NCBI GenBank assembly: GCA_048940445.1
Contig: JBHLON010000018.1
Span: 1-64,000, forward strand
Source of the DNA: Promethearchaeota archaeon
GTDB lineage: Archaea > Asgardarchaeota > Lokiarchaeia > Sigyniarchaeales > SOKP01
DNA length: 64,000 bases
Reading direction: 5' to 3'
Shown: piece by piece, positions 1 through 59,610 of the stretch
Numbering within the stretch: position 1 is the stretch's first letter
Layout of the letters: each line of letters starts with the position of its first letter
Translations under genes and position numbers: made by a program
Notes under the pieces: model-generated
Seen by the model: only the letters and a program-made list of their open reading frames with translations
Databases searched by the model: none
Told to the model about the DNA's origin: nothing

Positions 1-49
1 ATATAATTATTTTTTTAAATTATTGATTGTTTGAGTTATCTTTAATAGT

Positions 50-313
50 ATGAACGATTTATATCAAAAGTTTTTTAACTTATTAAAAGAACATAAAGGT
101 GAAAAACTAGTCATTGAAAGAAAGTATTTACCAGAGATTATACATGAAGATGGATGGCAGCTTAATAATGATGATGGGTTACCAGAATTAAAGCAAAGGG
201 TGAACAAGACAATAAGATACTTGAGGGTTAGATTTGAATATGATAAAGATTTAATAATTTTGTATATTCCTGAAAACTTCCTCCAAGAGCCCGACCTGGC
301 CTATTATAGTTGA
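50..313 (+). CDS. hypothetical protein
   Basis: 87-aa ORF with ATG start and protein-like composition; no family recognised. Confidence 0.6.
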   Translation: MNDLYQKFFNLLKEHKGEKLVIERKYLPEIIHEDGWQLNNDDGLPELKQRVNKTIRYLRVRFEYDKDLIILYIPENFLQEPDLAYYS

Positions 314-56811: not shown

Positions 56812-57312
56812 TTATTCTTTTAAATTTTGATTCTCGATACAATTGCATGTACCAGTCTCTAAGTCAATTGGTATGAGGAAATCATTATAAATTTCAGTAA
56901 TTATCTCAACTTTGACATTAGTTATTTCAGGATTTTCTCTAAAGTGATAATTAACAATTTTATCTAGATCTTTTAAATTAAATGAAGCAACAATCAGAAC
57001 AAAGTTTGTAGATCCGCTGACTCTATATCCGCGGATAATATAAGGACAAGATTTGATTGTATTTAAAATTAAGTCAATATTCCATGTTTTTAATTCTAGT
57101 TTGGCGAAATAACAATTTATATTTTTCAAATTAAGTCCCGCTTTAAATTGCAATATTCCAGAATCTTCAAGCTTCTTTATTCTCATCCCAACCGTGGGTT
57201 GACTTCTATGAACCCTTTTTGCGATCTCTGTATATGTTGAGGTTGGATCTGTTTGAATACATTCTACAATCCTCTTATCAATATCATCTAATGCAAGTGT
57301 TTTATTAATCAT
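56812..57312 (-). CDS. Lrp/AsnC-family transcriptional regulator
   Basis: LDDIDKRI...EIAK...SQPTVGMRIKKLE..GI; RVSG RAM domain. Confidence 0.92.
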   Translation of the reverse strand: MINKTLALDDIDKRIVECIQTDPTSTYTEIAKRVHRSQPTVGMRIKKLEDSGILQFKAGLNLKNINCYFAKLELKTWNIDLILNTIKSCPYIIRGYRVSGSTNFVLIVASFNLKDLDKIVNYHFRENPEITNVKVEIITEIYNDFLIPIDLETGTCNCIENQNLKE

Positions 57313-57525: not shown

Positions 57526-57861
57526 ATGGATGAGTTAACGAAAGAAATAGCGAATTTTCTAAAACTTTTGAGTGATCCCTATGCAATAGAAATTATTAGA
57601 CTTCTTAAGAACAGAGAATTAGTATCTAAAGATATTCAAGATAGATTAAACATTAGTCAATCCTATGTATCACAGGAATTAAAAGCGCTAAAACAAGAAG
57701 GAATACTGAATGTTAGAAAAGATGGTAATATAAAATATTTTTCAATTAAGAATAAATCGATTTTTAAAGTATTTTCTTCAATTAAATCTTACATTTTGGA
57801 ATTACACAAGGAAAAGTTTCAAAAAATGGTTGATTCGGATAATTTAGATAAATTACTATGA
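57526..57861 (+). CDS. ArsR/SmtB-family transcriptional regulator
   Basis: FLKLLSDP..IEII.LL, SQSYVSQELKALK..GI...RKDG..KYF. Confidence 0.9.
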   Translation: MDELTKEIANFLKLLSDPYAIEIIRLLKNRELVSKDIQDRLNISQSYVSQELKALKQEGILNVRKDGNIKYFSIKNKSIFKVFSSIKSYILELHKEKFQKMVDSDNLDKLL

Positions 57862-57874
57862 ACTTAACTAACCG

Positions 57875-58429
57875 ATGTCTAATATAAACAATAAAGATAA
57901 ATCAGAAGGTTATAATAAAGTTGTAGTGATGGGATTAGATAATAGTGGGAAGACATCCATAGTTCTTAGTGTTACTGGTAAAGTAAATTTACTTAATTAT
58001 TTATCATTAGACCCAACATTAGGTCATAATATCATTAATTTTAATTCTATTAATTCAAAATTCAACATCTGGGATTTAGGTGGCCAAGAAAGTTTTAGAG
58101 ACGAATATTTGGATAATTTTGCAGAATACATTACGGGCGCTTCTAAACTTATATTTGTGATTGATATTCAAGATGTCCTACGTTATGATTTAGCTCTAAA
58201 ATATTTTGAAAGCACTTTGAAACGAATTGAAGAAATGAATCTAAATTTAGATCTTACTTTGTTTCTTCATAAATATGATCCCGATTTAAAAGAACTCCGA
58301 CCAGAAATTACTGAAAAAATGATTCTGGATTTAATTGAAGAGCTTAAAAACGTAATTCCTAACGATTTTTATTATGAAATTTATAAAACAACAATTTATA
58401 CTGTTTTTGATAAAATTCTTGTTTATTAG
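57875..58429 (+). CDS. Rag/Gtr-like small GTPase (single domain)
   Basis: GLDNSGKT, PTLG, WDLGGQE, FLHKYD (HKxD), KTTIY. Confidence 0.88.
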   Translation: MSNINNKDKSEGYNKVVVMGLDNSGKTSIVLSVTGKVNLLNYLSLDPTLGHNIINFNSINSKFNIWDLGGQESFRDEYLDNFAEYITGASKLIFVIDIQDVLRYDLALKYFESTLKRIEEMNLNLDLTLFLHKYDPDLKELRPEITEKMILDLIEELKNVIPNDFYYEIYKTTIYTVFDKILVY

Positions 58430-58728
58430 GATTTTTTGTAATTTGAATGATTGAACCATTCACTTACTAAATCTAATCTCATTAATTTGAAATTAGCTTT
58501 TCAATCATCTTCGCAAAATATTCTACTTATTACTTTATAGTTTTAATACATTAATTAGATAATTATAAGGAATTTGCTTAATAATATGATATTTTGTCAT
58601 TAAAATTTGGATAACTCTCACAACTGGTTTATGAATTTGGAAAGATAGGGAAAATCTCTTTTTTTACAAAAATTTCAATCTATTATAATTATATTAAAAA
58701 ATTATAATACTTTTTATTTCTTGCAATT

Positions 58729-59610
58729 ATGAAACCGTTTATTCTAGTAGTAGATGATAATAAACTAATATTGAAAAATGTTAAAATAGTGTTAGAAGAA
58801 AATGATTTCAGTGTGATAACGTCATCAAACGGAAAAGATGCATTAAATACGTTATCTAAGATTGAGGAAATACCAGATTTAATAATAAGCGATATAATGA
58901 TGCCTATTATGAATGGATACGATTTCTTTGTAAAGGTTTCATCCACACCAGAATGGAGCCGTATTCCATTTATATTTCTAACTGCTAAAACAACTCCTGA
59001 AGATATTCGATTTGGGAAACTTTTAGGTGTTGATGATTATATCACTAAACCTTTTGAACAAGATGATTTATTAGCTGTGATTAAAGGTAAAATTAAACGG
59101 AAAGAAAAAATAAAGTCTATTGAGAATAGGATAAAAAAGTTTGTTGAAGAAAATGAAGACAAAATTACAATTTCAGGCAAATATAGTGATGATCAGGGTA
59201 AATGTGCAGTTCTTTTAATAATGTTTTGGGATGATAAACTAGGACCTAAATTGATGTATTATAATTCAATAAGAGAAAATTTACCTTATTCTTTAGATGA
59301 AATTGGTAGACAATTATTTCATGCCTCTGTCTTTATCTATGGTCATAATAAGATGGAAAAAGCGCAGGGAATCTTAGTAAATATTGAAAATATTAATAGA
59401 AAAGGGTATGCTTATTTTGATTCATATCCAGACAAAGATTTGAGAAGTGGGCAACAACAATATATGATTGCATTTATTACAAAAGAACTTAGTTATTTTA
59501 AATCTTTAAAAATAAGAAATATTTTTAAGGAAATTTCAAAAAATATCAAAAAAATGAAACCTGAAATGCTTGAAACATATCTATATGAAATTATAGAGCT
59601 TGAATATTAA
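58729..59610 (+). CDS. response regulator: REC domain plus longin/uDENN-like output domain
   Basis: VVDD, SDIMMP (Asp55), FLTAK, TKPF; C-terminal FWDDKLGP...DKDLRSGQQQYMIAFI. Confidence 0.85.
   Translation: MKPFILVVDDNKLILKNVKIVLEENDFSVITSSNGKDALNTLSKIEEIPDLIISDIMMPIMNGYDFFVKVSSTPEWSRIPFIFLTAKTTPEDIRFGKLLGVDDYITKPFEQDDLLAVIKGKIKRKEKIKSIENRIKKFVEENEDKITISGKYSDDQGKCAVLLIMFWDDKLGPKLMYYNSIRENLPYSLDEIGRQLFHASVFIYGHNKMEKAQGILVNIENINRKGYAYFDSYPDKDLRSGQQQYMIAFITKELSYFKSLKIRNIFKEISKNIKKMKPEMLETYLYEIIELEY

Follow-up and report, generated by a model that had tools for sequence, protein, structure and literature searches.

Does a bacterial-type phosphorelay gate a small GTPase in an archaeon, and does it do so through a regulator of eukaryotic type? 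This question is raised by a locus in a stretch of 64,000 nucleotides from a Promethearchaeota archaeon of the Lokiarchaeia (assembly GCA_048940445.1, contig JBHLON010000018.1, positions 1 to 64,000; the whole stretch is referred to as the window), in which a gene for a small GTPase is followed on the same strand by a gene for a response regulator. The original prediction, made from the letters of the window, described the regulator as a receiver with a folliculin-like longin/uDENN output and the pair as a candidate two-component-controlled GTPase-activating protein (GAP) and its Rag-like target. Both open reading frames (ORFs) were found where they had been placed, and the distance between them, given as about 300 base pairs (bp), is 299 bp. 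Lokiarchaeia have a conserved cassette that comprises an ArsR-type regulator, a GTPase of about 180 amino acids (aa), a histidine kinase and a fusion of a receiver to a longin domain (REC-longin), usually flanked by a divergent Lrp gene; the locus is a paralog of this cassette without the kinase. The regulator probably belongs to the REC-longin fusions already published from Asgard archaea, and it is predicted to act like the GAPs FLCN, NPRL2 and SMCR8.

The order ArsR, GTPase, histidine kinase and REC-longin was found in 16 of about 28 related loci, including a paralog in the same genome, and the window holds the only one of these 16 cassettes without a kinase. In the 15 other full-order loci, the genes for GTPase, kinase and regulator are located on a single strand and are separated by 26-231 bp. 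The paralog on contig C47 of the same genome consists of a divergent Lrp gene on the minus strand, an ArsR gene, a 182-aa GTPase, an 880-aa kinase with MASE3, two PAS, HisKA and HATPase_c domains, and a 297-aa REC-longin, with gaps of 36-73 bp between the genes. Synteny, one of the checks that the original prediction had proposed, was counted from both partners. Loci seeded with the regulator (n=21) contained the full cassette in 8 cases, a small GTPase within a few kb in 14 and a kinase directly beside the regulator in 17, and all eight loci seeded with the GTPase, which were chosen independently within the same genus, carried kinase and REC-longin downstream. The genome of 3.64 Mb contains about 33 sites matching Gtr1_RagA and the chance of finding one within 8 kb of a given gene is about 7%; the adjacency of GTPase and regulator exceeds chance. 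Of 301 genomes sampled from the phylum, 90 contained the longin family itself, among them 59 of the 68 in the family to which the window belongs and 21 of 21 in another family.

Phylogenetic analysis gave a corresponding picture. In the GTPase tree, 18 of 19 cassette GTPases and one short paralog (L035) grouped on a single branch (support 85/91), separate from the longer multidomain Rag-like proteins of the genome, and the regulator tree recovered the same four clades. Pairwise identities of the GTPases correlated with those of the longins (r = 0.88) and of the receivers (r = 0.72). The regulator gene has thereby been shown to be inherited together with the GTPase gene. The window GTPase is sister to that of locus L034 (support 95/97), which retains a 583-aa kinase. 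The regulator of the window is least like that of L034, and a chimeric origin of the locus was therefore considered; it was dropped for lack of evidence, since L034 forms a long, unresolved branch in the regulator tree. Moreover, a protein of 1123 aa in the same genome (L037:2591-5959, corresponding to contig C98:10590-13958) combines an Arf-like GTPase, a longin and kinase domains in one chain. The link that had been drawn between the regulator and the neighbouring GTPase thus gains backing from conserved synteny, from the agreement of the two trees and from the fusion protein, while the absence of the kinase turned out to be peculiar to the window copy.

Further arrangements were observed among the relatives. 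The 1123-aa protein begins with about 140 residues that are weakly longin-like, followed by the GTPase (146-309), the longin (320-400), two PAS domains, a GAF domain and HATPase_c; its longin carries the WD and Arg elements ('WDENLGV', '...DESIRGG'), the longin match recurring in ORFs of about 1130-1142 aa from many genomes of the family. In family f24, the REC-longin adjoins a protein of 455-461 aa with a central Gtr1_RagA domain (L024:5594-6979 and L028:5432-6799, both on the minus strand), in which additional N- and C-terminal parts form a different GTPase architecture. In f24 and a few genomes beyond it, the longin profile also matched ORFs of about 645-660 aa (e.g. G130:C9:190440-190853 and G259:C1:4564739-4565149). 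Tandem pairs of REC-longins were found as well (G214:C430 1636-2076 and 2575-3027; G265:C388 21201-21662 and 22158-22610; G183:C300; G132:C25). By analogy with the paired longins of eukaryotic GAP complexes, such tandem proteins might form heterodimers.

Next, the domains of the regulator were analyzed. Its sole Pfam match is Response_reg (residues 5-118, E-value 9.7e-24, 84 bits, cut-off 30.2). All functional residues of a receiver are present, namely D9, D10, the phospho-acceptor D55 (codon 58891-58893), T85 within T85-A-K, and K107-P108, and structural comparison of the receiver with DivK and other receivers gave a VIA Z of about 20. As had been stated originally, the receiver is intact and no DNA-binding output domain was detected in the regulator. 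An NCBIfam scan returned receiver matches only, all below threshold. With its receiver fold, acidic pair, Asp, Thr and Lys, the protein is a two-component response regulator; without a cognate kinase it is an orphan, and it still belongs to the response-regulator family. NCBI lists the family, under homolog P0005, as 'PleD family two-component system response regulator'. This name is misleading, because P0005 has no GGDEF domain; its NF007135 score is 77.8 bits, below the cut-off of 474, and comes from receiver and stalk alone. The top match of a sequence search against PDB, 12aw_A, was discarded, as it aligns weakly past the receiver and its motifs disagree.

Receiver and output domain are joined by a long helix that extends alpha5 of the receiver. 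Only with helical-stalk regulators did structural alignments continue to residues 150-158, namely with WspR (3bre, 2..153), DctD (1l5y, 3..151), EutV (6wsh, 1..158) and PleD (1w25, 2..150). WspR, DctD, EutV and PleD are stalk dimers. The helix is therefore a candidate dimerisation stalk, through which the regulator may form dimers.

The whole regulator was modelled with AlphaFold2 (AF2) on a 62-sequence alignment of representatives of the domain family. The model obtained a predicted local distance difference test (pLDDT) value of 91.8, with the secondary structures of the output domain at 85-97. They comprise beta1 (161-168), beta2 (172-180), alpha1 (189-204), beta3 (213-219), beta4 (224-234), beta5 (242-251), alpha2 (256-274) and alpha3 (278-292), and this order, beta-beta-alpha-beta-beta-beta-alpha-alpha, is that of a longin and not of a roadblock domain. 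An exhaustive HMMER search with residues 140-293 yielded 134 cluster representatives, most of which were 290-300 aa long, i.e. a receiver with the same C-terminal domain. The ESM Atlas structure search was restricted to residues 155-293. Among the neighbours were a Heimdall cluster in which 23% of the members carry Pfam Folliculin (template modelling (TM) score 0.80), SMCR8-like proteins (0.79), uDENN domains of FLCN/SMCR8 type (0.78) and C9orf72 (0.75), the last three matching over 133-137 residues, and, more weakly, a Loki cluster with Pfam NPR2 in 19% of the members (0.70); DENND11 and Avl9/DENN clusters appeared at 0.70-0.74. A profile of the domain family gave a single full-domain match in PDB, the longin of human C9orf72 (residues 31-159, E-value 0.07, marginal), in which the WDdklGP of the regulator is paired with WDNILGP; a larger profile found the same longin at 0.12. 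An hmmscan of 16 domain-only family members at E-values up to 10 produced noise only. The model and its structural neighbours support the assignment of the output domain to the longins of the FLCN/SMCR8/C9orf72 structural class. Of the folliculin-like longin/uDENN output proposed at the outset, the longin topology stands, with Atlas TM scores of 0.75-0.80, whereas neither a FLCN profile match nor a DENN core was found. The protein ends with the longin at residue 293, without a DENN core or the C-terminal part specific to NPRL2, and therefore does not have the architecture of FLCN. As both the profile and the architecture tests for FLCN, NPRL2 and SMCR8 failed, the regulator was placed among the published Asgard REC-longins and was not classed as a folliculin. 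A gene for a partner longin was not found in the cassette loci examined.

Two elements of this longin bear on its function. The longins of GAP type (FLCN, NPRL2, SMCR8 and C9orf72) are distinguished by a GP motif with an arginine finger next to it, while the motif is absent from the longins of FNIP2, NPRL3, TRAPP and DENND, and one class of Asgard longins has both the motif and the arginine finger (PMC12290439). In the regulator, the turn between beta1 and beta2 reads WDDKLGP, with G172-P173 opening beta2, and its WDxxxGP spacing equals that of human C9orf72, where the residues are W33-D34 and G38-P39 (PMC12290439). Among the 62 representatives, W167 is conserved in 60, D168 in 49, G172 in 60 and P173 in 57, as are F230 in 57 and Y256 in 61; in an alignment of 33 closer members (A3), the W, G and P of the turn are invariant. 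The second element is the arginine to which the original prediction had drawn attention. It is contained in the string DKDLRSGQQQYMI (59431-59469), which was recovered from the ORF together with the turn and the codon of R239, and is located in the beta4-beta5 loop, a confidently modelled block (pLDDT 96). Judging from the usual sheet order of longins, this loop and the beta1-beta2 turn would share one edge of the sheet. As for conservation of the arginine, the other check proposed beforehand, the R239 column holds Arg in 44/62 representatives, Arg occurs anywhere in the loop in 50/62, and in A3 R239 is at least 90% conserved. R239 is thus a candidate arginine finger, a putative counterpart of FLCN R164, NPRL2 R78 or SMCR8 R147.

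For the GTPase, the highest-ranking Pfam match was Gtr1_RagA (PF04670; 84 bits, E-value 1.4e-23, cut-off 22), followed by Arf (67.8 bits, 1e-18). The motifs G1 GLDNSGKT, T48 of switch I, G3 WDLGGQ71, G4 H132-K-Y-D135 (58268-58279) and G5 T172-T-I-Y175 were identified, the last two as originally reported. The G motifs, including T172-T-I174-Y175, are kept in at least 17 of the 19 cassette GTPases, which are 179-192 aa long, and the window GTPase keeps all of them, including Q71. The best PDB matches were 8yl2 and 8zla, both named 'GTP-binding protein', followed by Arf6, RagC/D and Gtr2, and in the Atlas the nearest eukaryotic cluster was Gtr1/RagA (TM 0.80), with RagC at 0.75 and Arf-like proteins at 0.72-0.74. 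The Gtr1_RagA match covers profile positions 1-172 of 232, and the C-terminal roadblock domain, which serves for dimerisation in Rag proteins, is absent. With 184 aa the protein is too short for the roadblock domain of a true Rag and is therefore best described as a Rag/Arf-intermediate G domain and not as a full Rag. The C47 paralog scores Arf above Rag, the reverse of the window GTPase, and so do the paralogs in sister cassettes. The designation as Rag-like is accordingly supported by the best match and by HKxD, but qualified by the missing roadblock and by the paralogs that score as Arf. The cassette clade has a third short member in the same genome, a GTPase encoded on contig C133 (L035:332-856; 38% identity to that of the window). 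No REC-longin was found beside it; the next ORF, of 726 aa, is on the opposite strand, and the context is incomplete on this short contig of 4.4 kb.

The position at which the canonical cassette encodes a sensor histidine kinase of 580-960 aa is occupied in the window by an AT-rich intergenic gap with a T-run after the stop codon of the GTPase gene, which makes co-transcription of GTPase and regulator doubtful here. In line with the original prediction, no histidine kinase was found in the window, and tblastn with the paralogous kinase gave no match there. HATPase_c had no match on the contig of the window, and a remnant of a decayed kinase was not seen in any of the six frames of the gap. A search of 41 further genomes of the genus gave no close ortholog of the regulator at E-values up to 1e-42. 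Its sole near relative, P0004, shares 62% identity with it over the C-terminal part, forms a group with it (support 100/100), and has the same length and motifs. The simplest reading is duplication of the cassette, loss of the kinase from this copy and supply of the phosphoryl group in trans.

We predict, with moderate confidence, that the regulator functions as a phosphorylation-gated GAP for the neighbouring GTPase. Phosphorylation of D55 would rearrange the dimer held by the stalk and bring two longins together, similar to the paired longins of eukaryotic GAP complexes. The paired longins would then engage the neighbouring GTPase in its GTP-bound state and insert R239 as arginine finger, by which the GTPase would be switched off. 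In the canonical cassette, the signal would come from the membrane sensor kinase with its MASE3-PAS-HisKA-HATPase_c arrangement. For the window copy, which has no kinase, the phosphodonor must come in trans, and it would most simply be the kinase of the paralogous cassette on C47. The ArsR regulator, presumably co-transcribed with the GTPase, is a candidate downstream output.

Several findings weigh against this prediction. The window copy lacks the kinase, and the gap with its T-run separates GTPase and regulator. PF11704 (Folliculin), PF06218 (NPR2) and PF15019 (C9orf72-like) missed the window domain in genome-wide searches at E-values up to 10, and fold searches of PDB with the whole model (Foldseek and VIA-align 'wide') matched receivers only, within model range 1-144, a result that is neutral as to the longin fold. 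The profile match to the C9orf72 longin is marginal (0.07-0.12), and C9orf72 itself has no Arg at the R239 column. The r values show co-inheritance and not physical contact, because the loci are related. Longin modules in general are more often guanine nucleotide exchange factors (GEFs) or platforms than GAPs (PMC3747258; PMC10933270), and 12 of the 62 representatives, the most distant ones, have no loop Arg at all. The regulator might thus act on the neighbouring GTPase as a GEF, like the DENN, Mon1-Ccz1 and TRAPP longins, or as a platform or effector specific for one nucleotide state, possibly substituting for the missing roadblock dimerisation domain, with R239 serving binding or structure. 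The preponderance of GEFs and platforms among characterised longin modules, the DENN-type clusters among the structural neighbours, the truncated Rag match of the GTPase and the distant members without the arginine all favour such a role, and the synteny fits it equally well. On the other hand, the GP motif that non-GAP longins lack (PMC12290439) is near-invariant here and accompanied by a conserved loop Arg, and the nearest structural neighbours are GAP-type longins. We consider a GEF or platform function rather unlikely.

Two further explanations concern the coupling of the regulator at either end. At the input side, the window copy could have been uncoupled from the phosphorelay, being constitutive, driven by small phosphodonors or drifting towards loss of function, with the GTPase neighbourhood as an ancestral leftover. 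Its status as the only kinase-less cassette among those examined, the lack of close orthologs in the genus and the intergenic gap with its T-run would fit, as would its departure from the family consensus at 179-180 and 251-252, where the YP and AP pairs, respectively, are gone. Yet both ORFs are intact, all five catalytic residues of the receiver, WDxxxGP, R239, F230, D231 and Y256 are retained together with all G motifs of the GTPase, the conserved length and motifs of P0004 argue for purifying selection, and a paralogous kinase exists in the genome. Uncoupling is thus improbable. At the output side, the two genes could merely be co-regulated and the REC-longin directed at a target elsewhere, for instance a membrane, a SNARE-like protein or any of the roughly 30 further small GTPases. 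The genome contains at least 33 sites matching Gtr1_RagA, family members without a nearby GTPase exist (L014, L018, L025-L027), and Asgard GTPase genes are generally not found in operons with longin genes (Tran et al., PMC10933270). This explanation is very improbable, however, considering that synteny is reciprocal (all eight GTPase-seeded loci carry the regulator), that the two trees are congruent, that in family f24 the regulator lies beside another Rag-like architecture (L024, L028), and that GTPase, longin and kinase also occur as a single-chain fusion. As for the two consensus pairs, Y and P are present in 36 and 51 of the 62 representatives, and A and P in 43 and 45. The window regulator has N-S and T-K at these positions, and P0004 has I-S and T-R.

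The features of the locus are compiled in Table 1. The ArsR gene ends 13 bp before the start of the GTPase gene, and an ArsR homolog was found in the equivalent position in 15 other cassettes. In 14 other loci (among them L013, L016, L019, L020, L022, L031-L033, L036, L038, L039 and L041-L043), ArsR is preceded upstream by a divergent Lrp homolog. Within the segment 55869-57312, the TFB gene that adjoins Lrp is not a conserved flank. As the Lrp flank is conserved and TFB is not, Lrp probably goes with ArsR and the GTPase and not with the TFB-USP-protease group. At the paralogous C47 locus, an ORF of 480 aa lies beyond Lrp that, by its look, resembles a class I aminoacyl-tRNA synthetase.

Table 1. 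Coordinates of the features of the GTPase/REC-longin locus in the window
Feature	Position	Strand	Basis
Lrp/AsnC-type regulator, divergent	56812..57312	-	Pfam HTH_24, HTH_AsnC-type, AsnC_trans_reg
ArsR/SmtB winged-helix regulator, first cassette gene	57526..57861	+	Pfam HTH_5 2.4e-9; NCBIfam HTH_metalloreg 63.6 bits (cut-off 55)
Small GTPase P0002, 184 aa, Rag/Arf-like G domain	57875..58429	+	Pfam, motifs, Atlas
AT-rich intergenic gap, 299 bp, at the place of the sensor histidine kinase	58430..58728		
Response regulator P0001, 293 aa	58729-59610	+	ORF
Receiver (REC) domain, residues 1-120	58729..59088	+	Response_reg 9.7e-24; AF2 pLDDT ~97
Long helix joining receiver and longin, residues 111-151, candidate stalk	59059..59181	+	AF2 helices 111-141, 143-151
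Longin output domain, residues 155-293	59191..59607	+	AF2 model, Atlas structure neighbours, family profile
W167-D168-D-K-L-G172-P173 (WDDKLGP), beta1-beta2 turn	59227-59247	+	Translation
R239, candidate arginine finger, beta4-beta5 loop	59443..59445	+	Translation

Subsequently, the locus was compared with known systems. Asgard NPRL2-like longins fused to two-component domains have been described by Liu et al. (2021; bioRxiv 10.1101/2020.10.19.343400, Fig. 5c), who infer a growth-type signalling in which two-component systems are central and the regulators eukaryote-like. The hybrid of two-component and proto-eukaryotic signalling, put forward in the original prediction, is therefore already contained in that work. 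The regulator likewise joins a longin to a two-component domain in an Asgard genome, and its nearest named homolog and the Atlas clusters are from Promethearchaeota. The published fusions and the regulator share the combination of a receiver and a GAP-type longin in an Asgard archaeon and the same evolutionary inference. The passages of Liu et al. (2021) on these fusions, however, name no conserved operon, partner GTPase, kinase or catalytic residues, and the copy in the window is kinase-less.

With the eukaryotic longin GAPs, i.e. C9orf72-SMCR8 (acting on Arf), FLCN-FNIP (RagC/D) and GATOR1 NPRL2-NPRL3 (RagA/B), and with the Asgard longins of PMC12290439, the regulator shares the longin fold with GP turn and loop Arg, the WDxxxGP spacing of C9orf72 and, on the side of the predicted target, the Arf/Rag-like family. 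It differs in being a single longin of 135 aa without DENN or NPRL2 C-terminal part. In humans the WD-GP turn belongs to C9orf72 and the arginine to SMCR8, FLCN or NPRL2, whereas the regulator combines both in one chain, so that a homodimer could replace the heterodimer. Furthermore, the eukaryotic GAPs respond to lysosomal nutrient sensors, while control by a receiver domain is proposed here. The Myxococcus system of MglA, MglB and RomR (PMC9481161, PMC13408092) resembles the locus in comprising a prokaryotic small GTPase, a regulator of the roadblock/longin superfamily and a receiver protein in the circuit. In that system, however, MglB is a roadblock protein without arginine finger, the receiver of RomR is not fused to MglB, and the GTPase belongs to the MglA family and is not Rag/Arf-like. 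Rag/Gtr proteins (PF04670), including Asgard Rag-like proteins (PMC10933270), have in common with the window GTPase the Gtr1_RagA profile, HKxD, T-x-I-Y, DxxGQ and the Gtr1/RagA structure cluster; the differences lie in the C-terminal roadblock and in the Arf-over-Rag scores of the sister-cassette paralogs.

These comparisons allow a broader reading, which as a whole is rather unlikely. The REC-longin may represent a self-contained homodimeric forerunner of the heterodimeric longin GAPs, with the WDxxxGP of C9orf72 type and the Arg of SMCR8/FLCN/NPRL2 type in one chain. Phosphorylation would assemble a two-longin pocket on a bare Rag/Arf-like GTPase, and the C47 kinase would drive two paralogous pairs, of which that of the window would be the branch without a kinase, forming a branched two-component-to-GTPase network.

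Both the REC-longin fusion type (Liu et al., 2021) and Asgard longins with GP motif and Arg (Traffic 2025; PMC12290439) are already published. A literature search combining Asgard, histidine kinase, longin and GTPase found no paper describing a cassette with both the GTPase and the kinase. The question which GTPases are partners of the GP-motif longins is asked in PMC12290439, and the cassette is an exception to the statement that Asgard GTPase and longin genes generally do not share operons (PMC10933270). By its conserved membership it makes a regulator and its likely target available for joint testing. One regulator, one GTPase and, canonically, one kinase are specified, all small and, apart from the sensor part of the kinase, probably soluble, and GAP versus GEF activity as well as control by phosphorylation are therefore directly testable in vitro. 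The natural kinase-less paralog is in addition useful for asking how signals are kept apart, or come to be shared, between regulator-GTPase pairs. Should GAP activity by way of R239 be confirmed, the catalytic design of FLCN, GATOR1 and C9orf72-SMCR8 would predate eukaryotes, and would once have been driven by a histidine-aspartate phosphorelay.

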